This document shows, piece by piece, positions 45,220 to 63,792 of a stretch of 64,000 nt of DNA. Within the stretch, counting starts at the first letter, position 1; each line of letters opens with the position of its first letter. Source of the stretch: a virus; the IMG/VR virus record IMGVR_UViG_3300030616_000016, positions 70,561 to 134,560 of that record; one strand, written 5' to 3'. The position numbers and the translations under genes were made by a program. The notes under the pieces are model-generated. The model did not search any database and was not told the origin of the DNA. It saw only the letters and a list, made by a program, of their open reading frames with translations.

Positions 45220-45642
45220 TTAATATATAGCATCTAATCCTTCACCTGCACGAAATATTTCTGCCTTTTCTATGGCTTCTAATAAACCCTTACATTCACA
45301 ACCGCAATGTATACATATTGCTAATTCTTTTGGATCTACTCGATCTTTCTTATTCAAAAGCTCATTGTTAAATTCTCTGGATCCACAGTAATTACATTGT
45401 GCTCTAAATACTTCTTCAAGTAACCAAGTAGAAATACCCTCTTTCCCTGTTGTGCATGTATGTTCTGGCTCCATACTTGTCAGATGGATATAATCATTTG
45501 GATAAGTTATAGTTTCTGTTCTTATAACTCTATGAAAATATCCAATACATTTCCTTAGTTGTTCTCGATAATCGCTATCTGGGCCAAGATCATCTGCTAT
45601 TTCATATGGTAATAGAATTTCTCCAACATTATATGTTTCCAT
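45220..45642 (-). CDS. Small protein with C-terminal double CxxC (zinc-ribbon family relative)
   Basis: GGAG RBS before METYNVGEIL. CNYCGSREF...CIHCGCEC. Confidence 0.5.
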   Translation of the reverse strand: METYNVGEILLPYEIADDLGPDSDYREQLRKCIGYFHRVIRTETITYPNDYIHLTSMEPEHTCTTGKEGISTWLLEEVFRAQCNYCGSREFNNELLNKKDRVDPKELAICIHCGCECKGLLEAIEKAEIFRAGEGLDAIY

Positions 45643-45644
45643 GA

Positions 45645-46190
45645 CTACTCCATCCCGATGGTATCTATGAAGTATTGTCCATCTCTTAATAATGTCACAC
45701 AAGAATGTTTGGATAATAGTTCGCGTGTATCAAATGGCTCTGTAATTATATGACAGCCATTTAAGGTATCAATTTTGGCTACTTGATTATCAGAAGGAAG
45801 TAGATTCATGATATCGATTATTGTATCTTGATCTGTAGTATCTACATCAAGCATAAACATCTTATCACTATGTGCATGCTCTTTTTGCATTAGAGCAGTG
45901 CGCCACCATGAATCAATAGAAGCTGATATTTCTGGATGGTCAATCATCTTCTTCATAAGCCATTTCATTGCTGCTTCACAATTACGGCTATTGACAGTCT
46001 TGTAAATACGCCACATTCCTCCCCTAATAGTGAGTTCTTCTTTAAGAATTTCTAGATCTATATCATGATCTTTAATAACGCGACGAATACATTTAGGCTT
46101 ATTATCGTTTATCTCCTGGTCTTTATTTCTTCGAACTGCAATGAACAAATCCACAAACTTTGAATAAAATGTTGGCTCTTTGTTTGACAT
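45645..46190 (-). CDS. Hypothetical protein
   Basis: AAAGGA RBS before MSNKEPTFYS. The track ORF starts at a GTG at 46205. Confidence 0.5.
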   Translation of the reverse strand: MSNKEPTFYSKFVDLFIAVRRNKDQEINDNKPKCIRRVIKDHDIDLEILKEELTIRGGMWRIYKTVNSRNCEAAMKWLMKKMIDHPEISASIDSWWRTALMQKEHAHSDKMFMLDVDTTDQDTIIDIMNLLPSDNQVAKIDTLNGCHIITEPFDTRELLSKHSCVTLLRDGQYFIDTIGME

Positions 46191-46327
46191 TTCTATTCCT
46201 TTCACAATAAATTGCCACAGAAGCTACCTAGCAATACAGAAATTGTGCCAAGAAGTAATCCTATGAGCAGTGGCCATACTGCTTCAAGCATCTTTTTAAA
46301 ATCTTCCATAATAATAACTCCTTGCAT

Positions 46328-46669
46328 TCAATTGACTGATTTGGATCCACAGTTTGGACATTCAAATAAGAGTTTAATATCATAGCCACAATAAAAGCAT
46401 TGATTATACGGCTCAAGATATTTTATAGTATTGACTGTATTAATAGTTGTGCCAAGTGCGACATTGCTATTAGGGTTTAGAGTGGCATTAGAAAGCTGAA
46501 ACATATTCCATTTTAATCTTTTAGTTATATATACATTGTGCTTATGAGTCCAATTGTATATATAATTCCTATGTACATCGGAAATATCTTCGTTACAAGT
46601 AAGTATGTTCTTGTGATATCTGACGCGTATGTGTCGCTTCATTACTTTTGCGGCTTCTCTATATTTCAT
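46328..46669 (-). CDS. Small protein with C-terminal zinc ribbon
   Basis: CFYCGYDIKLLFECPNCGSKS. Confidence 0.5.
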   Translation of the reverse strand: MKYREAAKVMKRHIRVRYHKNILTCNEDISDVHRNYIYNWTHKHNVYITKRLKWNMFQLSNATLNPNSNVALGTTINTVNTIKYLEPYNQCFYCGYDIKLLFECPNCGSKSVN

Positions 46670-46854
46670 TGTGATGGTCCATTTCCGAATACGACTCCGT
46701 CTCTGTACCCTTCTGTATGTCCAGCATTATATCCTGCCGCATAGGCTTTCTTTGCTAGTTCTTTTTGCTTTTTATCTTTTATACTAGCAGCTCTACACCA
46801 TTTCTTGAATTCCTTCTCACTGTATTCCATCATCCTCCTCCTCATAGCGGTCAT
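46666..46854 (-). CDS. Hypothetical small protein
   Basis: 62-aa ORF whose stop overlaps the next start. Confidence 0.4.
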   Translation of the reverse strand: MTAMRRRMMEYSEKEFKKWCRAASIKDKKQKELAKKAYAAGYNAGHTEGYRDGVVFGNGPSQ

Positions 46855-46910
46855 CTTCAGTCATCTTATGGCGACTTAAGAATGCCCATATTATTATGAT
46901 TATCAATAAT

Positions 46911-47099
46911 TCAACCCCCATTGTTGTCTCCATCTACATGATGATTTTTGCAAATTCTTACCTTGTGTCCTTGATAGTCAATTTCTTTTGTATCCGCCAT
47001 GGCATTCAATCTGCCACAAATAATACATCTTCCAACTGACTTTCTCTTTTCAGCTATTTTATTGCCCAGCAATGCTTTACTATCATTATTTTTGCTCAT
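46911..47099 (-). CDS. Small zinc-binding protein
   Basis: AGGAG RBS before MSKNNDSK. CIICG...CKNHH. Confidence 0.45.
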   Translation of the reverse strand: MSKNNDSKALLGNKIAEKRKSVGRCIICGRLNAMADTKEIDYQGHKVRICKNHHVDGDNNGG

Positions 47100-47109
47100 A
47101 AAAATTCTC

Positions 47110-47403
47110 CTATTGGTTATGTTGTTGTCTGATAACATTAAGGAATGCATCAATTCTATCAGAAGGTCTTTTGCGCAATTCTTGAATATAAATCGCGCGT
47201 CTTTTGGTAAGATTATCTATCCTCTCTTTTAGTTTCACTTCTTTCCTTGAAATATAAAACTTTCTTACTATTGGTGATAGAACAAACCATCTACTCTTTA
47301 GTTTTTCGTACTTTACTTTCAATAGCCATATTTCATCATTTAAATTGTTTATGGCAATAGATAAATCAGCACCTGACATTTTTGGAATAAGGTTAGTTTT
47401 CAT
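47110..47403 (-). CDS. Hypothetical coiled-coil protein
   Basis: GGAGAG RBS before MKTNLIPK. Confidence 0.45.
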   Translation of the reverse strand: MKTNLIPKMSGADLSIAINNLNDEIWLLKVKYEKLKSRWFVLSPIVRKFYISRKEVKLKERIDNLTKRRAIYIQELRKRPSDRIDAFLNVIRQQHNQ

Positions 47404-47417: not shown

Positions 47418-47759
47418 TCATAATAATGTAGAGCCGCATAAATCACAAATCTTCTGCTCTATATTAATATCTTTATTCCCACAAAATGGACATAATGCTA
47501 AATGAATGTTCTGAATGTCTGTTGATGTTAATGCTGCTGTATGCCAATAAGAGTCTATGACTATTGATTTATACTCCATGTGTATTCTAGATATTTTGAT
47601 ACTCTTGTTTGCTATAGTATTTGGAAGCCTGCATTGATACATTGTTGTACCATCTCCTTTATCATATATAGCACCATTAATAAGAGGAGAGTTTTCATCT
47701 TGTACATAAATTACAGACCATTGGTTTTCGTATGCAATAACACATTCTTCATAGGTCAT
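47418..47759 (-). CDS. Zinc-ribbon paralogue family member
   Basis: AAGGAG RBS before MTYEECVIAYENQ. C-terminal LCPFCGNKDINIEQKICDLCGS. Confidence 0.6.
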   Translation of the reverse strand: MTYEECVIAYENQWSVIYVQDENSPLINGAIYDKGDGTTMYQCRLPNTIANKSIKISRIHMEYKSIVIDSYWHTAALTSTDIQNIHLALCPFCGNKDINIEQKICDLCGSTLL

Positions 47760-47784
47760 TATGATACTCTCCTTCAATAATCAA

Positions 47785-48108
47785 TTAGTATTCTATAATG
47801 ACTTCTGGCTGTTTATACTCATTTGTATCTTTGTTAGTTTTAACCGGCGGCAAGACATTAATGATCCTACCATATGTGTCTTTTACTGTGCGGCTCGCTT
47901 CAAATTCTTCTTGTGTTAGTTCATTGGGATTGCCATACTGTTTGACCCATCCATTATATAGCTGCTTAGCATTTCTTTCTCTTTTTTGTATGATGCTTTT
48001 GCTGCTTCTAAATGTACATATAATCATTGATGAAAGTATGCAGATTATCGCTAATAGTACTACTAATTCAATAAAGGCAAACCCTTTATTACACTTTAAT
48101 ATTTTCAT
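47785..48108 (-). CDS. Protein with type-IV-pilin-like N-terminus (prepilin cleavage/methylation motif)
   Basis: MKILKCNKGFAFIELVVLLAIICILSSMI fits the G|F-x-x-x-E hydrophobic pilin signal. Confidence 0.55.
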   Translation of the reverse strand: MKILKCNKGFAFIELVVLLAIICILSSMIICTFRSSKSIIQKRERNAKQLYNGWVKQYGNPNELTQEEFEASRTVKDTYGRIINVLPPVKTNKDTNEYKQPEVIIEY

Positions 48109-48119
48109 GATATCTCCTG

Positions 48120-48488
48120 TTAGTCAATGTACCCATTTTTCTTAAAGCTAACTAATACTATCTTATTTTTCTCGCGATCATGTTGAAGCTTGATGTATAC
48201 TTTGGTATTACCTATTACTGTTTTGTATACATCCATATATTTTCTTACGTATAGATTTGCTTTTGTTGCATAAGCAAAATCTGGCTCTTTTAAGTTGAGC
48301 AGAGTTTCTACAACTTGGCTTTTTGAAAAGCTAAAGTCTTTTTGCGCATGATATCTCGCATCTCTTAATATCATATATCTATCATTCTTAATGAGAGTTT
48401 TTGCGCCTTCTAACTCAATAGAAGGCATGGCTCTCCTTTTTATGACAGGGAGATCTATGTCATTATTATTTGCTAAAGATACTTTCAC
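48120..48488 (-). CDS. mqsR: MqsR-family toxin-like protein
   Basis: LKEPDFAYATKANLYVRKYMDVYK...TKVYIKLQHDREKNKIVLVSFKKN aligns by eye with E. coli MqsR LSESDFYKSMTT...WQDVYR...QVYLKITVIHDVLIVSFKEK. Confidence 0.55.
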   Translation of the reverse strand: MKVSLANNNDIDLPVIKRRAMPSIELEGAKTLIKNDRYMILRDARYHAQKDFSFSKSQVVETLLNLKEPDFAYATKANLYVRKYMDVYKTVIGNTKVYIKLQHDREKNKIVLVSFKKNGYID

Positions 48489-48516
48489 TGGTCATTACTC
48501 CTCTGACAAAAAATGT

Positions 48517-48912
48517 TCATGGTAGTTCTGAATCGCAGCCGCAATTATTGCAAGCCTTATGCTTAATGTCTATATCTTGATTACCGCAATATTTGCATCT
48601 TATTACTTCAAGATCCTCAATTGATACATTTAGGTATAGAATTGTTTCTCCATCTGATACTGCAAATCCGCCTACATTCTCTGAATTTATCACATTAAGT
48701 TCATCTTTTACTATATCGACTCCTACAATATTTAGTGTCTTACCACGAAATATATCCACATAACAAGGCCCACAAATTGATGATTGTGAGACACAACCAT
48801 TTTCATCTATGTCAGCATGTCTTGCAGTTAAATTATATTCTTCATGTTCACCTATATTTAAGAATACAGGTGTTTTGTTAATATATGCCCGAACTGCCTC
48901 TTTGAACGTCAT
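48517..48912 (-). CDS. Zinc-ribbon paralogue family member
   Basis: MTFKEAVRAYINK... and C-terminal RCKYCGNQDIDIKHKACNNCGCDSE. Confidence 0.6.
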   Translation of the reverse strand: MTFKEAVRAYINKTPVFLNIGEHEEYNLTARHADIDENGCVSQSSICGPCYVDIFRGKTLNIVGVDIVKDELNVINSENVGGFAVSDGETILYLNVSIEDLEVIRCKYCGNQDIDIKHKACNNCGCDSELP

Positions 48913-49036
48913 GATTTATCCTCACGGTCTTTAAAGATTATCAATAGTATTTTTAGCGAAATAACATACAGTATGAGAATACCTAGAAATAGCTTTAACC
49001 ATAGAAATAGCATCGAATATTCTTCTCGATAGTATA

Positions 49037-49381
49037 TTATTTCGCTTCACGGACATCAATCCCAAGTTTGTCTTTAATCCACTTTGCAACAAGATGTCTG
49101 TGACAAAACTTCGTTGATCCTTCCCAGCATAATAGTATGGGTTCGCCGTCTACTAGCTCATGAATTTCATCATAAACTTCAGCGGCATTTAATTTACTTA
49201 GAATCTTGTCGTATTCTCGTACATAGGCTATTTTATCCAAGTTTCTTCTATAGGACTGTAATAATTCTTGTGATGGAGCTAATGTACGATATGTTGAGCC
49301 TATATAGAATTTTGGAGGAAATAGCGCTATAGACACTGCATCTGGATGAGTACCATAATTTCTGAAGTATGAAGTTTTCAA
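49037..49381 (-). CDS. DUF488-family protein
   Basis: LAPSQELLQSY...ILLCWEGSTKFCHRHLVAKWI (LLC.E....CHR..va.w). Confidence 0.6.
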   Translation of the reverse strand: MKTSYFRNYGTHPDAVSIALFPPKFYIGSTYRTLAPSQELLQSYRRNLDKIAYVREYDKILSKLNAAEVYDEIHELVDGEPILLCWEGSTKFCHRHLVAKWIKDKLGIDVREAK

Positions 49382-49614
49382 TTATCTTCTCCTTTGCTTT
49401 TATTATAATAGTATCTGTAAGCTTCTGTGGCTAATGCGCTCATCATAATTAGTGTGGAAGAACGATTGATATCATTTATTCTTATGAACTCATCAGTGAG
49501 CATACGTAATTTGCAATCGCCAATTTCTCCCTTATCTCTTAGAGTTTCATAATTAGATAGCAGTTCTTTTCTATCTTCGTCTGTCATTTCACCAATATAT
49601 TCTTCCATACTCAT
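49378..49614 (-). CDS. Hypothetical protein
   Basis: 78-aa co-directional ORF. Confidence 0.4.
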   Translation of the reverse strand: MSMEEYIGEMTDEDRKELLSNYETLRDKGEIGDCKLRMLTDEFIRINDINRSSTLIMMSALATEAYRYYYNKSKGEDN

Positions 49615-49617
49615 TAT

Positions 49618-50052
49618 TTAATCTCCATTGAGAGTTTCTATTGCACGCTCTTTAATGATTTCTTTTACTTTGTCTTCTATCTCATCCATTTTATCTTCAT
49701 CAAGATTATTTGATTCTGGTTTACGAGGACAGCTTGATTCCCAGTCACATTCGAAATCTACTGCAGATTTATCTGGTTCAATTGTGTATGTAGCACGACC
49801 ATGATAATCTTGATATCTCCAATCAGTACTTACTGTCTGTACTGATTTATAATTGGAGAGTTTTACTGTATTATGCTCTCTTGCTTCTTGTATATCATCC
49901 TGGATTTGTTCTTGTGTAACAATCTTATAGATTTGAGTAATATACTTTTTATTACAAGAAGTTTTCATAGCTGCATCATGTATGGTTTCTGCTTCTATGA
50001 TCTCGCTTTGTCCATTACAGCATAATACCTCAAAATGTGCTTTATTACTCAT
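49618..50052 (-). CDS. Hypothetical protein
   Basis: 144-aa co-directional ORF. Confidence 0.45.
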   Translation of the reverse strand: MSNKAHFEVLCCNGQSEIIEAETIHDAAMKTSCNKKYITQIYKIVTQEQIQDDIQEAREHNTVKLSNYKSVQTVSTDWRYQDYHGRATYTIEPDKSAVDFECDWESSCPRKPESNNLDEDKMDEIEDKVKEIIKERAIETLNGD

Positions 50053-50294
50053 TGCTTGTCCTCCTTCTCCATGAATTCAAGTGTATTGTAATCAATAGCT
50101 TTGAAGCCCTTCTCTTCGAATGTTTCCATATATTTAAGCTGGCGCTCAAGATCTTTCAACAAAGCTTGAGCATTTGCTCTAGGAGAGCCTTCTGCAGGTA
50201 TGTTCTTCTTAACAAGATCAATTTTATCTCTGAGCTTCTGCTTAAATACATTCCTGTGTTTCATTGTCTCAGGGATATTTACTTTATGTGGCAT
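50049..50294 (-). CDS. Hypothetical protein
   Basis: 81-aa co-directional ORF. Confidence 0.4.
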   Translation of the reverse strand: MPHKVNIPETMKHRNVFKQKLRDKIDLVKKNIPAEGSPRANAQALLKDLERQLKYMETFEEKGFKAIDYNTLEFMEKEDKQ

Positions 50295-50295
50295 A

Positions 50296-51069
50296 TTACT
50301 CCCTTTCTAGACAGAATGTCTCCATCATGTGATTTTGAACTCCTCTGTATTGCCATTGAAAAGTACAATTGACTCCCTTAATCTTAGGAAACTCTCCAAC
50401 ATTTCTATCTTGTATTTTGCTATTTCTTGAGTCACTCTGAATAGTTATGAAAATTAACTTACAATCGCTTTTGTTCACGAGATGTTTGACTGAAGATATT
50501 CTTTGATGCGTTAGTGGACCATTATAATCTAAGTGTGCTACATCAATGTCTATACGACTACATTTCTTGAGAAATGAATCGACATTCTGGTTTATCAGTT
50601 TTACATCCTTACTTAGCTTGCTCTTTATCGAGTTTTCGCAGATTGTATATATACTGTTTTTCGCCTCAAAGGCTAGAATGTTGTATGTATCTACTCCAAC
50701 CATGTTATTAATTATTACTAATTCAGTTCCTAGGTATGGTAGACATAGAAATTTGATGCTTCTTAGTCCTTTTGAGTGAATAATATTGCCTATGCTAGTA
50801 ATGCTATACCGCTTACCTATTGTGGCATATTTATCATTATTAGCGTCAATATTATTCTTTTTCTTAATGATTGGAAGGTTGGTTCTAACTTTTGTTTTGA
50901 TGTTATGCAAATGTGTCTCAACAGTTCTTGGCTTTATATCAAGCTTAGCTGATATTTGAGGAATAGAAAGACCACGCATGAATAGATCAACATGTTCTTT
51001 TTCTCTCTTTGTAAACAAATGCTTTTTATTAGAGACATCTGACGGCAAATGAACTTTTGTCCTATTCAT
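50296..51069 (-). CDS. LuxR/GerE-type HTH protein with uncharacterised C-terminal domain
   Basis: LFTKREKEHVDLFMRGLSIPQISAKLDIKPRTVETHLHNIKTKV. Confidence 0.6.
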   Translation of the reverse strand: MNRTKVHLPSDVSNKKHLFTKREKEHVDLFMRGLSIPQISAKLDIKPRTVETHLHNIKTKVRTNLPIIKKKNNIDANNDKYATIGKRYSITSIGNIIHSKGLRSIKFLCLPYLGTELVIINNMVGVDTYNILAFEAKNSIYTICENSIKSKLSKDVKLINQNVDSFLKKCSRIDIDVAHLDYNGPLTHQRISSVKHLVNKSDCKLIFITIQSDSRNSKIQDRNVGEFPKIKGVNCTFQWQYRGVQNHMMETFCLERE

Positions 51070-51310
51070 CTGGATTCCTTTCTGCTGAAGTATCTCTATC
51101 TGGTCCTCTTACTATTGATCTTAAACTCCATGATTTAGACTGTGGACAGGTTACGAAATGGCTTGTAAAGCATTCTGTTAAATGCCACTTCCCATTTTTA
51201 TCTTTTGTCCAAGCTTTTATTGGATCGACATCTAATGGCATACGTTTGCCATTGGCTGTTGTGATCCATTTAATATTTGCTTCACATGTTCTGCATTTCT
51301 CATATCCCAT
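51062..51310 (-). CDS. Small zinc-binding protein
   Basis: CRTCEANIKWITTANGKRMPLD...SHFVTCP (C-x2-C ... H-x3-C). Confidence 0.5.
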   Translation of the reverse strand: MGYEKCRTCEANIKWITTANGKRMPLDVDPIKAWTKDKNGKWHLTECFTSHFVTCPQSKSWSLRSIVRGPDRDTSAERNPDE

Positions 51311-51330
51311 ATCTTTCTCCTATCTTTGTT

Positions 51331-51621
51331 CTAAAGTCCAAACAGTTTTCTGTCTGATCCTAGGTGATCAACTATTTCACGAGCTAATCTTCTAGTAACG
51401 AGAATACGTATCATATCATCATCTGCATATGGCTCCTTTCTTTCAAAGTTCAATTGAAGATGTTCTTCTTGTGTGCGCAGTGCAATGACTATTTCAGCAA
51501 ACCACGATTCCATTTTACTGACTTCCATTTTTGCTTTATGTAGCTCGGAACTCATCTCCCAACATTTTTTATTTAGCTTCTTTTCGAGCTCTGTTTTTGG
51601 TTTTTGATTATGACAGTTCAT
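51331..51621 (-). CDS. Hypothetical protein
   Basis: 96-aa co-directional ORF. Confidence 0.45.
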   Translation of the reverse strand: MNCHNQKPKTELEKKLNKKCWEMSSELHKAKMEVSKMESWFAEIVIALRTQEEHLQLNFERKEPYADDDMIRILVTRRLAREIVDHLGSDRKLFGL

Positions 51622-51693
51622 TTTTTTCCTTCCTGTTGGACAGAAATATATGGGGTCGGGCTCTATTCCCTTATGCTAAAATTATATGTTAGT

Positions 51694-51972: not shown

Positions 51973-52128
51973 TAATGCAAACCAAGACTTAATTTCTACA
52001 TCACCACAAACAGGGGGGGTTTACGTTTACGCTTTATTCTCATTTCTCTTATATCCTTAACAAAAAAGTCAGTGGACCGGTTACTACTCAGACTACATCT
52101 TTACCTATTAATTCTATTGCTATGAACT

Positions 52129-52754: not shown

Positions 52755-52761
52755 AGGTTAA

Positions 52762-54414: not shown

Positions 54415-54747
54415 TTAGTGTTGTGAGCCACAGCTTGAACACACGCGTGTATCTACTGAAACATCTCCCCCACAAAATTTGCATATAAAGTTCTTTGTAT
54501 CTTTTATGTTTTTGACACTGCACGACTCACATACGTTACTATATTTCGCTATTGTTTCTATATCTATGTTCTGTGGAACAAGGAATGCGACTATTTGTTC
54601 GTATTTCCCAGCAGTGTAGTAATCTTGACAGGTTATGCAAACGCATTCCTCGATGAACTGATATACATCATACTTATATGTATCAGGGTCTACCCATTTT
54701 TTGATTTTAATTAAGTCTCCTTGTATGAACTTTAGGTATGTCCTCAT
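54415..54747 (-). CDS. Zinc-ribbon paralogue family member
   Basis: C-terminal ICKFCGGDVSVDTRVCSSCGSQH. Confidence 0.6.
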   Translation of the reverse strand: MRTYLKFIQGDLIKIKKWVDPDTYKYDVYQFIEECVCITCQDYYTAGKYEQIVAFLVPQNIDIETIAKYSNVCESCSVKNIKDTKNFICKFCGGDVSVDTRVCSSCGSQH

Positions 54748-54756: not shown

Positions 54757-55101
54757 CTAAATACTTGTCTCACATCCGCAGTTCTTACAAACACCTTTTT
54801 GTATTTCATCGCTGCCACAGAATTCACAAATTGCTAATTTCGCATATCTAATCGATTCGGATATTAAAAAATATTTTGAACCATTTGATACTATAAAGCA
54901 ATCGGTAGGAAATAGTGCATCAACAGACTGTATGGTACAAATTTTATCTCTTATTAAGTCTTCCACAAGTACATCAAATAGTTCTGTGCTTCTAATTCCT
55001 TTTGCATCAGTAAGTGTTGTTTTCATAGGATATGAACGAGGTATATCGAATACGATTTTTAGCTTATGTTTTATGGCATGCATTGCTTCTTCTATGGTCA
55101 T
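54757..55101 (-). CDS. Zinc-ribbon paralogue family member
   Basis: AAAGGA RBS before MTIEEAMHAIKHK. C-terminal AICEFCGSDEIQKGVCKNCGCETS. The track ORF is longer. Confidence 0.6.
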   Translation of the reverse strand: MTIEEAMHAIKHKLKIVFDIPRSYPMKTTLTDAKGIRSTELFDVLVEDLIRDKICTIQSVDALFPTDCFIVSNGSKYFLISESIRYAKLAICEFCGSDEIQKGVCKNCGCETSI

Positions 55102-55554: not shown

Positions 55555-55866
55555 CTAAGTATTAGTTTCACATCCACAATTGCAGCATACTTCATCTTGA
55601 ATCTCCTTACTGCCACAAAATTGACATTGTATTTCATAAGGAATTATATATCCTTCATCTACCCAGCGTCTGAGAGTAGTTGCTGTAATTGCGCTCCAGT
55701 TACTGCCACACCCTATTTCATTTAGATTACAATCTAGTCCAATCAGATAAAATGCAGCATCGCAAACGGAATGACGTTCTACTCTGAATATTTGTCCTGA
55801 ATTGCGCTCAATTTTATCTGTCCATTGCCATAGCTCACCAACTTGTGGCATTCTTGTTTCACTCAT
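55555..55866 (-). CDS. Zinc-ribbon paralogue family member
   Basis: AAGGAGGAG RBS. C-terminal IQCQFCGSKEIQDEVCCNCGCETN. Confidence 0.6.
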   Translation of the reverse strand: MSETRMPQVGELWQWTDKIERNSGQIFRVERHSVCDAAFYLIGLDCNLNEIGCGSNWSAITATTLRRWVDEGYIIPYEIQCQFCGSKEIQDEVCCNCGCETNT

Positions 55867-56312: not shown

Positions 56313-56324
56313 ATGCTCGGCAAT

Positions 56325-56756
56325 TCATTGCCGAGAGCATTCACTTTTGCGTTCTTCTATAGGCATTTCTGAATTGCAGCCGCAATTTAAACATACATCC
56401 TTAATCTCATTATGCCCGCAGAATTTGCATATGGCAATAGACAGCTCACGTGGCTCGATAATTATATAGATATCTGATGTCCATTCTAAGATAACAAAGT
56501 CTATCTTCTCTCCATCATAACCCGTTTCTTTATAGACTCTTGCTATCTTCAATGGTTCGTGGTCTGCGCACTCAAGTGAGATACATAATAGCACGCCTTC
56601 TTCATCTACAATATAGCGTTCTTTATTATGTATTACATTTTGAGCCTTAAGCGCGGCAGGATTAAATGCATACCATGCATAATTATCATTAGGATCAACT
56701 ATAACCATAACCTTTAGTCCATTCTTGTAGCACTGCCTTACTTCTTTCAGTTTCAT
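56325..56756 (-). CDS. Zinc-ribbon paralogue family member
   Basis: MKLKEVRQCYKNG... and C-terminal AICKFCGHNEIKDVCLNCGCNSE. Confidence 0.6.
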   Translation of the reverse strand: MKLKEVRQCYKNGLKVMVIVDPNDNYAWYAFNPAALKAQNVIHNKERYIVDEEGVLLCISLECADHEPLKIARVYKETGYDGEKIDFVILEWTSDIYIIIEPRELSIAICKFCGHNEIKDVCLNCGCNSEMPIEERKSECSRQ

Positions 56757-56786
56757 TATTTTTTCTCCAATATGGATTCACTTGTT

Positions 56787-57083: not shown

Positions 57084-57085
57084 GC

Positions 57086-57331
57086 TTAATCTCCTCTCAT
57101 TTCCTCAAGTAGGATATTCAGTGCTTCCCTAGCACGGTCTGTAAGCCATTGTTGGTCACATGACATACGTAATAATGTGCATTTCATCGGCTTTTCTTCG
57201 CTATACATCCATTCAATAAGCTCCTCTGCTTGCTCCCTGTCTGCAACCTCGACAGTCAGGTAAACAATTTTCTTTCTTGTAAGCATATCTACTATGCCGT
57301 TAAAAGTTTTCTCTGCTTGTTCAGGGTTCAT
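57086..57331 (-). CDS. Hypothetical protein
   Basis: The likely start is MNPEQAEK. The track ORF extends to 57439 and overlaps its neighbour. Confidence 0.4.
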   Translation of the reverse strand: MNPEQAEKTFNGIVDMLTRKKIVYLTVEVADREQAEELIEWMYSEEKPMKCTLLRMSCDQQWLTDRAREALNILLEEMRGD

Positions 57332-57413
57332 CTGTATCACCGCCTTTCTTTGCCATAATCGATCTCCTATAGCGTTAATATAACAACTGTAGCGTATCCC
57401 CTTACATCTCCTT

Positions 57414-57644
57414 TCAATATACGATACCGTTAATGTCAAATTCTTCTATCTTATTTTCTACAGGCCCGATTTTATTACCTAATATGATTCCAGCTGCAAA
57501 ACATTTTGCACATATAATACCTACATCCAAGTTACCTTGTGATCCATGTAGCTTGGAATAATTACTTTGATTTATTTCATGATGTGTTATTGTTAATCTT
57601 GATTTGCCTTCAGTTCTAACTAAATAAACATATGTTTTATTCAT
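57414..57644 (-). CDS. Hypothetical protein
   Basis: 76-aa co-directional ORF. Confidence 0.4.
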   Translation of the reverse strand: MNKTYVYLVRTEGKSRLTITHHEINQSNYSKLHGSQGNLDVGIICAKCFAAGIILGNKIGPVENKIEEFDINGIVY

Positions 57645-57669
57645 TGCTTATTCCTTTCATATTTTGGCA

Positions 57670-58047
57670 TTACAAAAGCATTGCGATTTCTTGAATAATA
57701 AATAGTTTGGGAGCAACGCATATTTTAACTAAGCATATTGTATTACAAATTATAAATGGTATAGAAACCAATCCGCAAGTAATTCCTGCTACCCAATAAA
57801 ACACTTCTTTATTATCGCAAGAATCAAACTCCTTGGTAATCAAGCAGTAAAAACAATAAATAGCTGTTGTCAATAATATAATGCCTGCTGTAACTCCAAT
57901 TATAGACAACCAGAAATTATACCTTAGGAGCTGATTGACTATATCTGGAGCCTGAGAAATAGCAAAATCCTTGGTTTTGACTATTGATTCCAGAATTTCC
58001 TTGACTAACGACATTGATTCTTTCTCCATATTAAATTTCCTTTCCAA
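57670..58047 (-). CDS. Membrane protein (three predicted helices)
   Basis: FWLSIIGVTAGIILLTTAIYCFYCLI; VFYWVAGITCGLVSIPFIICNTICLV. Confidence 0.5.
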   Translation of the reverse strand: MERKFNMEKESMSLVKEILESIVKTKDFAISQAPDIVNQLLRYNFWLSIIGVTAGIILLTTAIYCFYCLITKEFDSCDNKEVFYWVAGITCGLVSIPFIICNTICLVKICVAPKLFIIQEIAMLL

Positions 58048-58073
58048 TAAGGGTTAAATTGGCCTAATTCTTT

Positions 58074-58403
58074 TCACGATTGTTCACTTCCGCAGTTTGT
58101 GCATGTAGTACCACTAAGATTTGTATAGCCACAATATTTACAACTGGCTGTTTCTACAACACTACTGTATGTCCAATAGTATCCTCCTGCAGATATGCAT
58201 ACCAATAAGTATTCGTCTATCTTTGATGCACTTGTTTTTATAGTATCAATTATAAATGGAATGTTAAGCGGCGGCTGCATGGTCTCAGATAAGGAGTAAT
58301 GGTCGTGCTGTGTTCCAAAACTTGGATATTCATTAGGTGTATGCCTTCTAATAACACACTTGGTTTTATTCTCCTTGGCTATTTGAAGCTCTTGAATTGT
58401 CAT
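58074..58403 (-). CDS. Zinc-ribbon paralogue family member
   Basis: MTIQELQIAKENK... and C-terminal SCKYCGYTNLSGTTCTNCGSE. Confidence 0.6.
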   Translation of the reverse strand: MTIQELQIAKENKTKCVIRRHTPNEYPSFGTQHDHYSLSETMQPPLNIPFIIDTIKTSASKIDEYLLVCISAGGYYWTYSSVVETASCKYCGYTNLSGTTCTNCGSEQS

Positions 58404-58476: not shown

Positions 58477-58740
58477 CTACGCATTTGAGACTATGCCATC
58501 CGGCTTCTTTCCACTTTTGCAATTTCCTCTGTTGTAATATCCACTGTTGTTTTTCTCATCTACAGCCACTTTAATATCCTCCTTTGACAGATTTTTAACA
58601 AGTTTTATTTTATTTGTACACGCCTTATCCGAACATACTATACGGTCATTGTCAAATCCACATCCGTACACTGGCAACATGATTTCACCACAAATATCAC
58701 ACTTGATCTGCACCTCAATAGCCCTTATAAATTGGTTCAT
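58477..58740 (-). CDS. Small zinc-finger protein
   Basis: CDICGE...CSDKAC. Confidence 0.45.
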   Translation of the reverse strand: MNQFIRAIEVQIKCDICGEIMLPVYGCGFDNDRIVCSDKACTNKIKLVKNLSKEDIKVAVDEKNNSGYYNRGNCKSGKKPDGIVSNA

Positions 58741-59105
58741 TGTTCACCGTCCTTCAATAATTCCGGGTTCTCGTGGATGTTGCCGATAATTTTGCCACTT
58801 GTGGCACCATAAAAAATTTGCCCGTCTTCGGTTTCAATATAAAAAGTTCCTCCCATCCATTTAACTACACCAATGAGGACGATTTCGAGATCGTATTTTA
58901 TAATATCACCTTGATAAACATCTTTGTCATCCCTGTCTTTAATATCGGTGAAGAACTCAGCAATACAGCCCTTTGCCAGCCTCTGAAAATAAGTGTGTCT
59001 AAGGTCAGCAACACAAAGCTCGCCGTTTGGGTTGAGGTAATATTCATCTTCGTCATGGTCATACTTGCCTTCGTTTTCATTCCATACCCTGAATTTACCA
59101 GTCAT
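58737..59105 (-). CDS. YopX-family protein
   Basis: FRVWNE...VYQGDII...GKIIGNIHENPELL (characteristic C-terminal GNIHENPELL). Confidence 0.7.
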   Translation of the reverse strand: MTGKFRVWNENEGKYDHDEDEYYLNPNGELCVADLRHTYFQRLAKGCIAEFFTDIKDRDDKDVYQGDIIKYDLEIVLIGVVKWMGGTFYIETEDGQIFYGATSGKIIGNIHENPELLKDGEQ

Positions 59106-59153
59106 TGTTCTCCGTCCTCCTGTTCTGGTTCTGGTTCCGGTCCACCGTCTGGA

Positions 59154-59615
59154 CTATTGCTCTGATCCCACCACCTCAAACCACCGACACCGATATTTAT
59201 TTCCAGCTTGATGAATTTCAGATAATTTAGTTCGTACTTTAATAATCTCTACCTTATTGACACTGTATTCTTTCGCATGTCGCAAAGTGGGCCATAAATA
59301 TAAGCCGGGATGACATTCTGTGGTGCATACTGAGAAAAAATCAGCCGAGTAAAACCGACCATCTCTATATTTATCAATATGCCCAGCTTCCCGAGTTCGA
59401 TAACCAATAGCATAACCTTCGTCAATTTCGGGCCAGTCCGTTGGCGTGTTTAATGTCGCGTTCGGATCTAAAACGGTGTTCGACAAATTGGCTCCGGACA
59501 GATTAGCTCCGGACAGGTTGGCTCTGTACAGATTAGCTCCGGACAAATAGGCTCCGGACAAAGATGTCCCTTCGATCTCTTTTAACAATATTCCATCTTT
59601 ATTTTTGATTTTCAT
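59154..59615 (-). CDS. Pentapeptide-repeat protein with C-terminal globular domain
   Basis: LSGAYLSGANLYRANLSGANLSGANLSNTVL. Confidence 0.7.
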   Translation of the reverse strand: MKIKNKDGILLKEIEGTSLSGAYLSGANLYRANLSGANLSGANLSNTVLDPNATLNTPTDWPEIDEGYAIGYRTREAGHIDKYRDGRFYSADFFSVCTTECHPGLYLWPTLRHAKEYSVNKVEIIKVRTKLSEIHQAGNKYRCRWFEVVGSEQ

Positions 59616-59835
59616 TTTTTATCTCCATCAGCCACTGCCTTTCCCGATAATAATCGTCCCATCTTTCCTTCCAATACGCATCGTTCTCTTTCCTGCAATC
59701 CGGGCAGAGTGTAACCCAATTTTTCTCTTCATCAGTAAAAAGCGTGTTCTGTCTATATCTTTCAGCGTCATTTGCACCGCACGCTTGACATTTATTCTCT
59801 TTTTTAATATCCTTTAACTGAGATTCTGTTTTCAT
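59599..59835 (-). CDS. Small zinc-ribbon protein
   Basis: CQACGAND...CPDCRKEN. Confidence 0.45.
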   Translation of the reverse strand: MKTESQLKDIKKENKCQACGANDAERYRQNTLFTDEEKNWVTLCPDCRKENDAYWKERWDDYYRERQWLMEIKNENQK

Positions 59836-60335
59836 TGTTCACCGTCCTTCCAGACGATGCCGACGATTTTGGCACGCTTAATTTTTTTGTAATCTAAATG
59901 GTATAACGAATTGTACCAGCCGCCGCTGTTTGCCCCAAACCAGCCATGAGTAGTGCTTATTATATAATTATCAGGACGGCCCGGTTCCACCTGTAGCAGG
60001 CCGAGGCATTGGTTGAGATCCATGAGTTTGGATTCTGTTTTTAAAAGACCGTATATTTTATATAGTCTTTTAGTTCCAAATCTTTCTTTGTGACGTTTTT
60101 TCTCCGGCTCAATTAATCTGTACCCCTCTGGCAACTGGTAAATAGGCTTCTCTGGCTCTAGCTCTTTGAGTTCCAAGCCGATTTCTTCTGGGTCGGTGTA
60201 TCCCATTGGGCTGTTATAACCACAACAACATACTATATAGTTTGACATTGTACTTAGTGTAAGTTTATGGCCAAGCGAGGTTGCTGCTTTGTTTATCACA
60301 TTCTCATACGGACATTTATAATCTTCAATCTTCAT
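59832..60335 (-). CDS. Hypothetical protein
   Basis: 167-aa co-directional ORF. Confidence 0.5.
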   Translation of the reverse strand: MKIEDYKCPYENVINKAATSLGHKLTLSTMSNYIVCCCGYNSPMGYTDPEEIGLELKELEPEKPIYQLPEGYRLIEPEKKRHKERFGTKRLYKIYGLLKTESKLMDLNQCLGLLQVEPGRPDNYIISTTHGWFGANSGGWYNSLYHLDYKKIKRAKIVGIVWKDGEQ

Positions 60336-60634
60336 TCACCATCCTCCTGTGGTTTGATAGTTATTTTGCCATCTAAACAAAAGTGTTTGCAGTTTTTTCT
60401 TCTACCTTTTATTGATTTACATAGTATATTTTTATATGCGTAGCAAACTGCAAAATAAGAAATATTCCACGCTGAAATACCCCATGCTGAAATGTCCCAT
60501 GCTGAAATATTCTCTGCTGAAATATTTCTTGCTGAAATATCCCCTGCTGAAATACTAAAACTAATATCAATGTCACAGCATATGCACACATCATCATCAA
60601 TAACAGCAGTATTAGTTTTATCAACGTATTTCAA
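60332..60634 (-). CDS. Small protein with ISAxN/D pentapeptide-type repeats
   Basis: SAGDISARNISAENISAWDISAWGISAWNISYF, encoded by 15-nt tandem repeats at 60471-60555. Confidence 0.5.
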   Translation of the reverse strand: MKYVDKTNTAVIDDDVCICCDIDISFSISAGDISARNISAENISAWDISAWGISAWNISYFAVCYAYKNILCKSIKGRRKNCKHFCLDGKITIKPQEDGE

Positions 60635-61019: not shown

Positions 61020-62240
61020 CTATGTCAATTGTTCTGGAATAAGCTCGCTTTGATTTCTCCAATTTAGAGCTTGTTCCACTGTTTTGATATTTTGTGGTAC
61101 GCATTCCATGTGCCATGTACCAATGCTTGGATTTAGCATTTTAAGATAAGGCCATTTGCCGGTCTCACCCTTCAGATCTACTACAACCAATTCATAATCT
61201 CCTTGCGTGTCCAGTGATTCAGCGCCCGTAGATTTGACAATTCGTTCTATACCTACCTTTCTTATAAACTCCCTACGGACTTCTGCATTATCAAGTTCTG
61301 CGAATTTAGCAGGGTCAATGTCATGCTCATTCGTTTCTGCTAACCACTGCGGAACTCGTACATTATTCAAATGCCACAGTCCCCAACCGTCCGCAAATTT
61401 TACAGACATTCCTCCATCTTTATGCAGATGACTGGCTTTCCAGTTTATTTCGATTGGATTCCGACTTACAATAGCAACATTTTTATACAGTGCGCTTGAG
61501 GATATTTTTCTGTTGTAATTTAGAAATATATCATATTTTTCTTTCTCATATTTAACGCCTATATATTTCCCAAACTCGTAAACTCCGCACCAATCATTCC
61601 ACCATATGTTTATATACTGCTCGGTTTTTAATTTGTTGGCACTAAGCCTGTCACGAAGGCTGTCACGAAGGCTGTCACGAAGGCTGGCATCAAGACTGTT
61701 ACGAAGACCGGCACTAAGACTATCATAAAAACTATTATGAAGACTGTCATAAAGACTGTTACGAATATTGTCATGAAGGCTGTTACGAAGACTTTTATGA
61801 AGACTGGCATAAAGACTGTCATAAAGACTGGCATAAAGTTTGTCATAAAGATTGTCATGGAGACTGTTACGAAGACTTTTACGAAGACTTTTACGAAGAC
61901 TGGCATCAAGACTGTAATAAAGACTGTCATAAAGACTGGTATAAAGTTTGTCATAAAGATTGTCATGGAGACTGTTACGAAGACTTTTATGAAGATTGTC
62001 ATGAAGATTGTTATGAAGATTGTCACTAAGCAAATGTTCTGTTAGTGCTGTTGTTAATGGGCTATCACAGATTATAATTTTAATGGCATTATCTGCACCA
62101 GTCATTTTTACAATAGGCAATACTGCGTGTTTAATTTCTTCATCACTGTATTGCGCCGATATGAGGTTTAAACAGCGATTTATATGTCTTGGTATCATTT
62201 TTTCTTGTTCTTTTGTTAAACTCATAATTTCCTCTTTCAT
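61020..62240 (-). CDS. Repeat protein: central (x-S-L-x)n tract and a C-terminal DUF6745-like domain
   Basis: About 130 aa of LHDNLYDKLYASLYDSLRNSL... repeats. C-terminal HLHKDGGMSVKFADGWGLWHLNNVRVPQW...DNAEVRREFIRKVG. Confidence 0.6.
   Translation of the reverse strand: MKEEIMSLTKEQEKMIPRHINRCLNLISAQYSDEEIKHAVLPIVKMTGADNAIKIIICDSPLTTALTEHLLSDNLHNNLHDNLHKSLRNSLHDNLYDKLYTSLYDSLYYSLDASLRKSLRKSLRNSLHDNLYDKLYASLYDSLYASLHKSLRNSLHDNIRNSLYDSLHNSFYDSLSAGLRNSLDASLRDSLRDSLRDRLSANKLKTEQYINIWWNDWCGVYEFGKYIGVKYEKEKYDIFLNYNRKISSSALYKNVAIVSRNPIEINWKASHLHKDGGMSVKFADGWGLWHLNNVRVPQWLAETNEHDIDPAKFAELDNAEVRREFIRKVGIERIVKSTGAESLDTQGDYELVVVDLKGETGKWPYLKMLNPSIGTWHMECVPQNIKTVEQALNWRNQSELIPEQLT
61641..62030. repeat. 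Roughly 32 tandem copies of a degenerate 12-nt unit inside gene 61020-62240
   Basis: Units such as gactgtcataaa / gactgttacgaa. There is a higher-order duplication of a ~100-nt block. All three frames on both strands are open, which produces the artefact ORFs 61628-62026 and 61737-62045. Confidence 0.85.
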
Positions 62241-62512
62241 TCTGCGTCCTCCTGTTCTGGTTCTGGTCTTGTTACTTTAAATCCCATGTTTTCAACTTCA
62301 TCCAAAGTATAAGCATCCTTCCGTGGTTCTTTATATTTTCTGCTTAATTCTATCCATTTATTACAACTTGGACAACGGCTATACATGTTCCTGATTTCTG
62401 TAGGGTCAACCTTATTCAGCATGCACTCTCCATCTTTGCTTTGAAATGAATCAACAGTGGTTCCACAAAAAGGGCAATACATTTCAAAGTTTACATAGTC
62501 ATACATTCCCAT
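62237..62512 (-). CDS. Small zinc-ribbon protein
   Basis: YDYVNFEMYCPFCGT...CPSCNKW. Confidence 0.5.
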   Translation of the reverse strand: MGMYDYVNFEMYCPFCGTTVDSFQSKDGECMLNKVDPTEIRNMYSRCPSCNKWIELSRKYKEPRKDAYTLDEVENMGFKVTRPEPEQEDAE

Positions 62513-62733
62513 TCTACGTCCTCCTCAATTATTTTTTGAAGACTTTTGAAATCTGACTTTAAGTCAAAAATTGCTTTTATCATCCATCCTATCGATGTTA
62601 GTATAAATGTGATAAAGCAATAGAAAACTATATCCATTTGGTATTCTCCTGTATGTGTATCCGGCCATTTATTAGGCCAAAATGGCCTGATTGATAATTA
62701 AGTTTGTTCGATAGGCGCCGCTTAACCGCTTAT

Positions 62734-62781
62734 CAAGGTGCATTCGTAAGACCCCTGGCTTTAGGCGTGGGGTAATGTCAC
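62734..62781 (+). mobile_element. 48-bp minimal relic of the tnpB element (LE start fused to RE end)
   Basis: TTAT|CAAGGTGCATTCGTAAGACCCCTGGCTTTAGGCGTGGGGTAATGTCAC. The junction falls in the CTTTAG loop shared by the LE and RE hairpins. Confidence 0.75.
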
Positions 62782-63024
62782 TTCTAAATCTAGTTCATAT
62801 TTAATTGTTTTTACTAGATCATTAATTAATTCTGGACGTGTAGCCATAGTTTCTACATTCCAATTTCTGTTGATGTATTGTGGTTTACATCTTAAATTAA
62901 AATTTCCTCCAATATCAGAGATAGATTCAATTATAGCTTTGATTCTTTCAGGAGTTAAACCAGCATTATGATAGTCTTCAAAACTCAAATGGATTATTGT
63001 TGTTGTATAATAATTAAGTTTCAT
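62761..63024 (-). CDS. Hypothetical protein whose last five codons and stop derive from the IS relic
   Basis: The C-terminal ...EVTLPHA* is encoded by gtgacattaccccacgcctaa, the reverse complement of the RE end. Confidence 0.45.
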   Translation of the reverse strand: MKLNYYTTTIIHLSFEDYHNAGLTPERIKAIIESISDIGGNFNLRCKPQYINRNWNVETMATRPELINDLVKTIKYELDLEVTLPHA

Positions 63025-63274
63025 TGTTCAATTCCTTTAGTTTAGCTTTCCATTGTTTTTCTGAATACCATTTGCCATCGAGACACCAAGCCTTATCTCC
63101 ACTAGCCCACTCAATTGAAGGTCCATCTTCTCTGTGATATTTGTCATTAATACACCAATACTTACTTCCATTGAAACCCTCAATTGCTGGAGCACCTTTT
63201 CGATGTAAGATTTTGTTTTTATCATAATGATCAAGAATGCTACCATCTTTATAATAGAATTTACTTCTTCTCAC
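63014..63274 (-). CDS. MORN-variant repeat protein
   Basis: HRKGAPAIEGFNGSKYWCINDKYHREDGPSIEWASGDKAWCLDGKWY (repeated G-P-[AS]-I-E...G-x-K-x-W...G-K-x-H). Confidence 0.55.
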   Translation of the reverse strand: MRRSKFYYKDGSILDHYDKNKILHRKGAPAIEGFNGSKYWCINDKYHREDGPSIEWASGDKAWCLDGKWYSEKQWKAKLKELNNET

Positions 63275-63318
63275 GTTTAGCCCTTTCTCTTATTAAATAA
63301 TTAATCTATTTTCAATAT

Positions 63319-63792
63319 TTAAGTGGTTTGTAACTCGGCAATAAGTAATGTGTTTCGTAAGATACTGCGCACGCTCTCAAAACTAAGATACAAATCGCTG
63401 TAGCAATCATTACATGACTCATATGGATAGTTATTGTATATATTATCACTCCCACAAAATGGACATGTTAATTTATATAAACTATCAGATACACATTTGT
63501 TAATATTGAATGTGAATAATTTTAATGTTAGTGCGTTGCCTTCATCGAGCGGGACTTTGAACAATAAACTATAGGTACATATATTGTCACTCCCCTTTTT
63601 TCCTATACTTTCTAGATAAAGCGGCAATTTTCTTTGTTGGCCTATGTTAAGTTCTTGAGATACAACAGTCTCCTCCTCATCTGTCATATGGAACCTATAG
63701 TTAGTCGTTTGAGTCTCGTTAAGTGTATATGGGTTAGCAATATAAATAAGCGGCCATTTCTCTTTCATAGCCTTAAGTAAGTTCAATTCCAT
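63319..63792 (-). CDS. Zinc-ribbon paralogue family member (divergent)
   Basis: MELNLLKAMKEKW... and C-terminal LTCPFCGSDNIYNNYPYESCNDC. Confidence 0.5.
   Translation of the reverse strand: MELNLLKAMKEKWPLIYIANPYTLNETQTTNYRFHMTDEEETVVSQELNIGQQRKLPLYLESIGKKGSDNICTYSLLFKVPLDEGNALTLKLFTFNINKCVSDSLYKLTCPFCGSDNIYNNYPYESCNDCYSDLYLSFESVRSILRNTLLIAELQTT

Follow-up and report, generated by a model that had tools for sequence, protein, structure and literature searches.

A lineage-specific expansion of small zinc-ribbon proteins, putatively built on one scaffold, in the accessory region of an uncultured jumbo phage

Do small, divergent phage proteins that end in the same four-cysteine pattern belong to one diversifying family, or do unrelated proteins carry a common zinc ribbon, and what might such proteins do? 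The question is raised by a stretch of 64,000 nucleotides (the window), part of a metagenomic contig of ~232 kb from an uncultured jumbo phage, in which an initial annotation had proposed an expanded paralogous family of at least nine genes sharing a C-terminal C-x-[FY]-C-G…C-x-x-C-[GY] ribbon. When six frames of the 64 kb were searched with the pattern C-x-[FYW]-C-G-x(4-30)-C-x-x-C-[GY], exactly the ten annotated ORFs were recovered, each in its place, all on the coding (minus) strand and all within 45.2-63.8 kb. Of the minus-strand ORFs with 60 aa or more, 10 of 48 at 45-64 kb carried the motif vs. 0 of 63 at 1-45 kb (Fisher p = 1.3e-4), and shuffling the residues of all ORFs 500 times never produced it.

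The ribbon ends 3-6 residues before the C-terminus in seven of the ten proteins and 17-26 residues before it in 56325, 63319 and 45220 (ORFs are cited by their first coordinate). In its family-type form it reads C-x-[FY]-C-G-x6-10-C-x-N-C-G-[CS], and a C-G-C-[ED] signature, protein size and C-terminal ribbon position are common to members across subgroups. Parts of the originally annotated pattern had to be loosened: the size range of 100-145 aa is exceeded by 63319 (157 aa), the second knuckle, given as C-x-[ND]-C, is CDLC in 47418, CSSC in 54415 and CIHC in 45220, and the spacer of 6-13 residues grows to 24 in 45220. The M-T-x-x-E start is present in 47418, 48517, 54757 and 58074, and is degenerate in 56325 (MKLKEV), 46328 (MKYREA) and 63319 (MELNLL). 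Of the ten proteins encoded in the window, nine are acidic, with pI values of 4.5-5.8 and ribbons that are themselves acidic or neutral. The region also encodes small zinc proteins of other layouts (62237, 59599, 58477, 46911), and scans for promoters and terminators gave counts indistinguishable from those in shuffles.

Ribbons were scored leave-one-out against a family ribbon HMM, with the top-scoring generic ribbons among 1.84 billion proteins as the yardstick. Those of 48517, 54757, 55555, 56325 and 58074 out-scored the yardstick, and those of 63319, 45220, 47418, 46328 and 54415 scored no better than it. The best-connected protein, encoded by 54757..55101 (minus strand, 114 aa), consists of an MTIEEA… helix, a beta-rich body and the ribbon, CEFCGSDEIQKGVCKNCGCETSI; phmmer aligned it over its full length with 58074 and 47418 and partially with 48517 and 56325, and its ribbon reached 44 bits vs. 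31 for the best generic one. The product of 58074..58403 (minus strand, 109 aa) forms subfamily A with copies a, b, c and d, which lie outside the window, and has a clear paralogue just past the window's end, the N-domain matching at E 1e-17 with the ribbon removed. Similarly, 56325..56756 (minus strand, 143 aa, a 17-aa tail past the ribbon; 35 bits) is a paralogue of out-of-window copy e, with an E of 2e-7 for the N-domain alone. Its NCGC[ND]SE[LM]P ending recurs in 48517..48912 (minus strand, 131 aa, pI 4.6; 33 bits), the DNA being 88% identical over 26 nt. In a 10-sequence set, 48517 matched 56325, 54757 and 47418 at phmmer E-values of 1e-8 to 1e-9, and its N-domain without the ribbon compared with that of 54757 at z = 3.7 over shuffles. 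The ribbon of 55555..55866 (minus strand, 103 aa, or 98 aa if translation starts at the second Met; 35 bits) matches that of 54757 with 73% identity across 22 aa; its N-domain gave nothing significant against any other member. Homology beyond the cysteines is solid, as judged from sequence comparison, for 54757, 48517, 56325, 58074, 55555 (in the ribbon only) and four copies outside the window. To this core 47418..47759 (minus strand, 113 aa, or 119 aa from a TTG at 47777) probably belongs: it begins MTYEEC and aligns over its full length with 54757 (phmmer 5e-7, 10-sequence set), and its ribbon has a score that the best generic ribbons also reach.

The remaining four are peripheral, and their kinship with the core, which would run through a generic ribbon, is unproven. 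The 157-aa product of 63319..63792 (minus strand) is a possible member whose ribbon ends in C-N-D-C-Y, is followed by a 26-aa tail and scores below generic ribbons; its N-terminal motif matches weakly in register (hhalign P 0.008). Another possible member, 54415..54747 (minus strand, 110 aa), directly follows 54757 in the direction of transcription, carries another CxxC…CxxC pair within the N-domain and resembles other members in the ribbon only. For 46328..46669 (minus strand, 113 aa), the sole basic member in the window (pI 9.5) and again a possible one, similarity is at ribbon level, with a weak N-terminal motif (hhalign P 0.11). Membership of 45220..45642 (minus strand, 140 aa) is doubtful; it carries the motif only if the long spacer between its knuckles is allowed, its ribbon, followed by a 26-aa tail, scores below generic ribbons, and no similarity of its N-domain to other members was found.

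These peripheral proteins bear on the main objection to a family, namely that there is no single one, and that unrelated small phage proteins in a zinc-rich region independently carry the common short CxxCG…CxxCG ribbon. Most pairs of window members indeed lose all similarity once the ribbon is removed, the N-domain profile of subfamily A finds no other window member, and pairwise N-domain comparisons exceed shuffles by z of only 2.4-4.0, in three pairs. The five ribbons at generic level, the neighboring zinc proteins of differing layouts and the fact that the family profile also matches unrelated multi-ribbon proteins point the same way. Independent acquisition does not, however, account for five ribbons that beat the best found in 1.84 billion proteins, nor for the size, ribbon position and C-G-C-[ED] signature common to the subgroups, nor for an N-terminal helix and first strand that align in register from one subgroup to another and rank above every one of 93 background ORFs from the same phage. 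Moreover, copy c is a proven member on the evidence of its N-domain, and its ribbon is as degenerate as those of the doubtful members, so that a weak ribbon is compatible with membership. We consider it unlikely that the array lacks a common family, and this explanation can hold only for 54415, 63319, 45220 and 46328. The proposal of an expanded paralogous family was therefore borne out for the core by ribbon scores, outside paralogues and N-terminal alignment, and for those four the outcome that would have spoken against it, generic CxxC pairs as the only shared feature, was in part what we found.

The array does not stop at the end of the window. Four further members, one of them frameshifted, follow immediately on the same contig (L089, whose position 12700 corresponds, in reverse complement, to window position 64000). 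With the ten ORFs inside the window this brings the copy number to at least 14 within ~21.5 kb of accessory region, as counted over positions 84-161 kb of the 231.6-kb contig, ENA ERZ27252234 k141_1275754, so that "at least nine" was an underestimate. Two sequences (P0009 and P0014) considered as orthologues from a sister phage were rejected as such, since L089 places both on the same contig past the window's end. The true strain variants are L007 and L008 only, the strains being 88-95% identical in DNA; L008 has the extra copy c and L007 an a/b chimera. In the reference genome copy b is frameshifted by a 1-nt deletion, and the split recurs among the genes called in L090 and L092, whereas L091 shows its first part and then the contig runs out. 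Between strains, dN/dS was 0.52 for copy a, 1.83 for copy d and 0.40 for copy e vs. 0.13 and 0 in two flanking genes, values derived from a small number of substitutions (3 synonymous and 21 non-synonymous in copy d) and possibly inflated by recombination between paralogues. The changes in copy d are concentrated in the helix at the N-terminus and in one strand, and the ribbon has a single one.

Pfam, PHROGs, NCBIfam and PDB sequences yielded no related family; for the ten members the first three gave only sub-threshold matches to generic, Lar, L37e and NrdD ribbons. All ten ORFs have the two knuckles of the Pfam zinc-ribbon families PF13240, PF13248 and PF12773 (C-x-x-C-G…C-x-x-C), and the best scores of 9-17 bits fell short of gathering thresholds of 25-27. 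Ribosomal bL32 was rejected as a relative, since only the 22-26-residue ribbon aligned (E 1e-3 to 4e-3) without a full-length L32p match; the best E-value to Pfam Ribosomal_L32p was 0.019, with 58074 at 7.5 bits vs. a cut-off of 21.3. Lar was likewise rejected (16 bits vs. 28.6 for PF14354 and 17 vs. 39.6 for TIGR03655, only the CPFCG knuckle aligning). Among 5.8 billion clusters there were only self matches, among 1.84 billion protein representatives only self matches and repetitive generic ribbon proteins, and tblastn of 54757 and 58074 against 50,697 GenBank phage records gave no match at E <= 1. IMG/VR yielded nothing past the generic ribbon, one apparent relative (L005) proving to be an unrelated N-terminal-ribbon protein with only "IQKGVCKNCG" in common, and the JGI metagenomes yielded two contigs of the same lineage only. 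In the genomes searched, the family is an orphan that occurs in a single lineage of uncultured phage, and the earlier reluctance to name it was justified by the lack of a match in any curated family.

An AlphaFold2 model of 58074 (pLDDT 84) predicts a helix at the N-terminus, followed by a small beta-barrel of SH3/Sm-like type and then the zinc ribbon, and a low-confidence model of 54757 (pLDDT 58) places the elements in the same order. The N-domain had been annotated as variable; divergent it is, and in the core it is better described as one fast-diverging predicted fold, a helix plus a small beta-barrel, rather than as unrelated domains. Foldseek found nothing at E < 0.09 either for the 54757 model against PDB or for the 58074 model against BFVD. 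We identified no Sm motifs, and there was no match to Pfam LSM or Hfq.

As to function, the reading we favor, plausible rather than probable and based on sequence and models, is that a lineage-specific family on a single scaffold, locally duplicated, supplies protein-binding factors for host takeover, anti-defence or exclusion. The scaffold would comprise an N-terminal alpha-helix (M-T-x-x-E-h-x-x-A…), an SH3/Sm-like barrel with a long variable loop and the C-terminal four-cysteine ribbon, and would have been multiplied by local duplication. The ribbon may be the constant metal-stabilised module that holds so tiny a domain together or docks it, with barrel and loop as the diversifying recognition surface through which separate paralogues would bind separate host or competitor proteins in one or other of these roles. 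Proteins are the probable ligands, rather than nucleic acid, because most window members are acidic. The arms-race interpretation offered at the outset is consistent with the turnover in copy content, with dN/dS of 0.4-1.8 vs. 0-0.13, and with acidity. A more specific version, which we regard as speculative and rather improbable, is that the array is a battery of binders on one scaffold in which each paralogue, through a diversified surface of barrel and loop held in place by the invariant zinc ribbon, neutralises a different host immune or competitor protein, and that unequal recombination resizes this library as hosts change.

Sequence-specific nucleic-acid-binding regulators, or structural DNA- or RNA-binding proteins, each paralogue with its own site or transcript, would be the main functional alternative. 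Bacillus phage G has a zinc-ribbon expansion of ~35 copies of unknown function, for which a role as transcription factors or in DNA binding was proposed (Iyer et al. 2021, PMC7824862). Nucleic-acid binding may hold for 46328 and for three outside copies, namely b and, from each of the two strains, d, since these proteins range from basic to nearly neutral (pI 8.1-8.2 or 7.6 for the outside copies). For the array as a whole we think it improbable, given the acidity of nine of the ten window members, whose ribbons are likewise acidic or neutral, the failure to find a helix-turn-helix or other DNA-binding domain, and the lack of tblastn similarity to GenBank phages at E <= 1.

An antitoxin origin is suggested by one neighbor. 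On the same strand as 48517, and starting 29 nt downstream of it, lies an MqsR-like toxin gene (48120-48488; Pfam MqsR_toxin, E 1.2e-10, above the curated cut-off), and 48517 could be a zinc-binding, MqsA-like antitoxin from whose kind the family derived. MqsA binds MqsR via its zinc-binding domain; it has that domain N-terminally and an HTH C-terminally, and its gene is downstream of mqsR. The ribbon of 48517 is instead C-terminal, without an HTH, its gene is upstream of the toxin, a search for the MqsA family gave no match, and only one of at least 14 members adjoins a toxin, making this origin very unlikely. The weakest proposal, that the N-domain is a divergent DUF2829 (Tad2/AcrIIA7) and the proteins are sponges for immune signalling nucleotides, is largely refuted: M-T-F-x-E-A-h-x-A-h-K-x-G-x-K-V does resemble the start M-x-F-G-E-A-L-E-A-L-K-x-G-K-K-V-x-R of Tad2 and AcrIIA7 chains in PDB (hhalign local P 0.002-0.004, over merely 16-28 columns), but an HMM of 62 sequences put no member above background, a profile including the G-W-N-G-K-G and L-A-E-D-W motifs was not matched (hhalign probability 8-15%, N-terminal helix only), no member matched PF11195, and a Tad2 fold was rejected.

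If the favored protein-binding role is correct, and these are binders on one tiny zinc-stabilised scaffold, the phage would provide no fewer than 14 natural versions of a ~110-aa domain for use in screens against host targets or defence systems, and a clean case of jumbo-phage counter-defence diversity arising by local duplication, chimera formation and pseudogenisation. It would not be new in kind, as jumbo phages are already known to harbor paralogue expansions, zinc-ribbon ones included. Synthesis and screening of the family would be reasonable, the fold of one member having been predicted with confidence.

Among known proteins, Zn_Ribbon_1 (PF13240), Zn_ribbon_3 (PF13248), DZR (PF12773) and ribosomal bL32/eL37, to whose ribbons there are weak matches, likewise have two CxxCG knuckles around a short hairpin. 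The phage proteins differ in the aromatic at knuckle position 3, the N before the last Cys, the frequent C-G-C-[ED] ending and a ribbon placed strictly C-terminally behind a domain of ~90 aa. A precedent for the favored role is Enki (bioRxiv 10.1101/2024.06.14.598830), a phage protein that has 52 aa and what is predicted to be a zinc ribbon, and that inhibits both AbiH and a retron. Enki and Lar resemble the present proteins in being small, in coming from accessory regions of phages and in their predicted ribbon. Both are, unlike the present proteins, essentially a ribbon alone, N-terminal and single-copy (Lar being ~60 aa, and Enki set apart by its description). With the Hfq/Sm, SH3, KOW, Mib/Herc2 and WYL families (N-terminal helix plus small barrel) the resemblance is at fold level only, at 9-17% identity, and those families are without a C-terminal zinc ribbon. 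The closest parallel in kind is phage G, also a jumbo phage with many paralogues of a small zinc-ribbon protein. No tblastn similarity to its family was found at E <= 1, in a collection that may or may not hold the phage G record, and the present proteins are set apart from that family by being mostly acidic and by an extra domain, predicted to comprise a helix and a small barrel.

All ten minus-strand ORFs that the initial annotation had listed as encoding small zinc-ribbon proteins (45220, 46328, 47418, 48517, 54415, 54757, 55555, 56325, 58074 and 63319, named by their lower coordinates) are present in the window. When all 64 kb were translated in six frames, the motif C-x-[FYW]-C-G-x(4-30)-C-x-x-C-[GY] was confined to these ORFs, matching on the coding strand every time and always within 45.2-63.8 kb. 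Among minus-strand ORFs of at least 60 aa, 10 of 48 in that region carry the motif vs. 0 of 63 elsewhere in the window (Fisher p = 1.3e-4), and it arose in none of 500 shuffles of the ORFs. The ribbon lies at the extreme C-terminus in seven members, followed by 3-6 residues, and precedes tails of 17-26 aa in three; cysteine makes up 5.8% of the family proteins vs. about 2% in the remaining window. The initial description needs minor correction: the second knuckle is not C-x-[ND]-C in every member, the spacer of 45220 has 24 residues rather than 6-13, and 63319, at 157 aa, exceeds the range of 100-145 aa. The observation of a motif-bearing gene cluster is confirmed and can be extended past the window.

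An exhaustive HMMER search of 1.84 billion representatives retrieved the window members and two more full-length small proteins (P0009 and P0014), the remaining matches being long proteins of repeated generic ribbons only. Both are encoded on the window's own contig, at a locus (L089) whose sequence, beginning with position 12700, matches the window exactly in reverse complement from 64000 on. Directly upstream in the direction of transcription, past window position 64000, L089 10001-11414 holds a head-to-tail array of four further members: copy a (115 aa), copy b (reading frame broken by loss of 1 nt), copy d (106 aa, sharing 52% identity with 58074) and copy e (139 aa, paralogous to 56325). 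A DUF6745-like gene separates this array from 63319, and the family totals at least 14 copies between contig positions 94.3 and 115.8 kb. That DUF6745-like gene (window 63919-64000, continuing as L089 11662-12777) has a paralogue at 61020-62240 (-), the last 82 nt of the two being 94% identical; the in-window copy carries about 35 degenerate 12-nt (4-aa) repeats, LHDNLYDKLY….

The family is confined to one phage lineage: across 5.8 billion clusters, word-indexed searches recovered this phage's own proteins and no others, and every contig retrieved by scans of IMG/VR and JGI metagenomes belonged to the same lineage and came from a few related samples. Two short contigs, 88-95% identical to the out-of-window array, are strain variants of it; one (L008) carries copy b in unbroken form along with a further copy, c, the other (L007) an a/b chimera. 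Copy b is frameshifted in the reference genome, gene calls at two further loci (L090 and L092) show the same split, and those at L091 include its first part before the contig ends. Between the reference and L008, dN/dS (Nei-Gojobori) was 0.52 for copy a, 1.83 for copy d (3 synonymous and 21 non-synonymous differences) and 0.40 for copy e, vs. 0.13 and 0 for flanking genes of 197 and 58 aa; the counts are small, and recombination among paralogues plausibly contributes to the values. The differences in copy d are concentrated in the N-terminal helix and in one strand; the ribbon has just one.

Compared without their ribbons, 58074 and copies a, b, c and d (subfamily A) are clearly homologous (phmmer E 1e-17 to about 1e-4), with H-Y-S…Q-P-P and A-Y-S-S-V-[IV]-E in common, as are 56325 and copy e (E 2e-7). 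N-domain similarity among the other window members is weak (Smith-Waterman z = 4.0 for 54757-58074, 3.7 for 48517-54757 and 2.4 for 47418-54757), and a subfamily A profile detected none of the remaining window members. When profiles were compared with one another, with 93 other ORFs of the same phage as background, family members ranked top, with alignments in register every time (residues 1-18/30 on 1-18/30); the four best non-self matches of the 54757/47418/48517 profile were copy d, 56325, 58074 (80 columns) and 63319 (P 4e-4 to 8e-3). The ribbons themselves were given leave-one-out scores, with the top generic ribbons recovered by the profile from the whole library as the yardstick. Those of 48517, 54757, 55555, 56325, 58074, d and e outscored every generic ribbon, those of 47418, 54415, 46328, a and b fell inside the generic range, and those of 63319, 45220 and c below it. 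A second knuckle ending C-G-C-[ED] occurs in 9 of 17 sequences compared, across N-domain subgroups. Since the N-domain places copy c securely in the family, a degenerate ribbon is no bar to membership, and sequence therefore cannot prove 54415, 63319, 45220 and 46328 to be members. N-domain E-values, ribbon scores and in-register N-termini support an expanded paralogous family for the core, while the claim is unproven for these four.

The AlphaFold2 model of 58074, built from an eight-sequence subfamily alignment (mean pLDDT 83.7, pTM 0.75), comprises a helix (3-11), a strand (16-18), a long, partly low-confidence loop holding the conserved Q-P-P, strands 50-57, 65-71, 74-79 and 83-85, and the ribbon. 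The order of elements is the same in the poor model of 54757 (pLDDT 58), which shared its alignment with 58074 and is no independent evidence. Foldseek gave no significant match in PDB or BFVD.

In reverse complement, the window corresponds to positions 97,042-161,041 of a metagenomic contig of ~231.6 kb (ENA ERZ27252234 k141_1275754; 231,647 bp in the JGI copy), with genes nearly throughout on the minus strand and a GC content of about 0.36. It encodes a split multisubunit RNA-polymerase beta-like protein, UvrD-like and DEAD-type helicases, a kinase-like protein, a full TnpB and a nicotinate phosphoribosyltransferase, an auxiliary NAD-salvage gene (44039-45196, -) adjoining a 336-aa protein (43010-44020, -) with a weak IS110-type Transposase_20 match (E 8e-5). 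Because a DNA-level search found no match among GenBank phages and the RNAP-like protein shares no more than 26-31% identity with isolated phages, in alignments that span roughly a quarter to a third of it, we consider this jumbo phage deeply novel.

In the accessory region, the family has as neighbours an MqsR-like toxin, pentapeptide-repeat proteins and further pairs of paralogues. The MqsR-type gene (48120-48488, -; passing the Pfam cut-off at E 1.2e-10), for which no MqsA antitoxin could be recognised, is flanked by 48517 and a small membrane protein; the 107-aa product of 47785-48108 (-) begins KGFAFIELVVLLAII…, resembling the prepilin N-terminal methylation motif (Pfam N_methyl E 0.0035, below cut-off). 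A pentapeptide-repeat protein (59154-59615, -; Pfam E 4e-12) and a protein with 15-nt (5-aa) 'ISAxN/W' repeats (60332-60634, -) could be DNA-mimic-like. Small proteins at 51694-51972 (-) and 56787-57083 (-), which match no family, have W-F-A-[IL]-L-P-V-T…V-T-V-V in common and a 25-nt stretch 92% identical. In the gap between 56325 and 55555, and in the opposite orientation to all phage genes, lies a C-terminal fragment of a TnpB/IS605-type protein (55971-56312, +, chiefly 56060-56312; Pfam Cas12f1-like_TNB E 8e-13), which shares 35% identity with the full TnpB (21900-23117) in a 55-aa stretch and is probably what remains of an insertion element. Small zinc-binding ORFs are common throughout the region, and further small cysteine-rich proteins (62237-62512, 59599-59835, 58477-58740 and 46911-47153, -) have N-terminal or central CxxC pairs, unlike the family. 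A 20-nt junction (minus strand: GAAGGACGGTGAACAATGAA) recurs at 58736-58755, 59101-59120 and 59831-59850, where the upstream gene ends …DGEQ* and its stop is overlapped by the next ATG, an arrangement that suggests translational coupling via a shared ribosome-binding sequence.

All but one of the ten window members are acidic (pI 4.5-5.8), with acidic or neutral ribbons, which argues for protein binding and against general nucleic-acid binding. Protein binding is also favoured by the small-barrel fold with its long conserved loop, the constant ribbon, the accessory-region position and the strain-level turnover. The favoured reading of the family is a diversifying set of binders, of host-interaction or anti-defence type, in which a single zinc-stabilised scaffold would vary; its function is plausibly host-directed. 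That the proteins are specific nucleic-acid-binding regulators is a serious rival, especially for basic members. Membership of DUF2829 (Tad2/AcrIIA7), suggested by the N-terminal motif, was rejected: a DUF2829 consensus retrieved Tad2 and AcrIIA7 chains in PDB, an HMM of 62 non-redundant DUF2829 sequences from IMG/VR scored no family member above background, hhalign aligned the helix alone (probability 8-15%) and Tad2 chains did not appear in fold searches.

As initially reported, no name can be assigned, none of the curated families searched being a match. The ribbon resembles the ubiquitous short zinc ribbon, with bL32 and eL37 ribbons the best PDB sequence matches (E 1e-3 to 4e-3). Bacillus phage G has a lineage-specific expansion of a zinc-ribbon protein, for which a transcription-factor or DNA-binding role was suggested (PMC7824862), and AbiH and a retron are inhibited by Enki, a phage zinc-ribbon protein of 52 aa (bioRxiv 10.1101/2024.06.14.598830). 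Sequence lends no support to a relationship of either to the present family, whose novelty is that of a new architecture within a known phenomenon.
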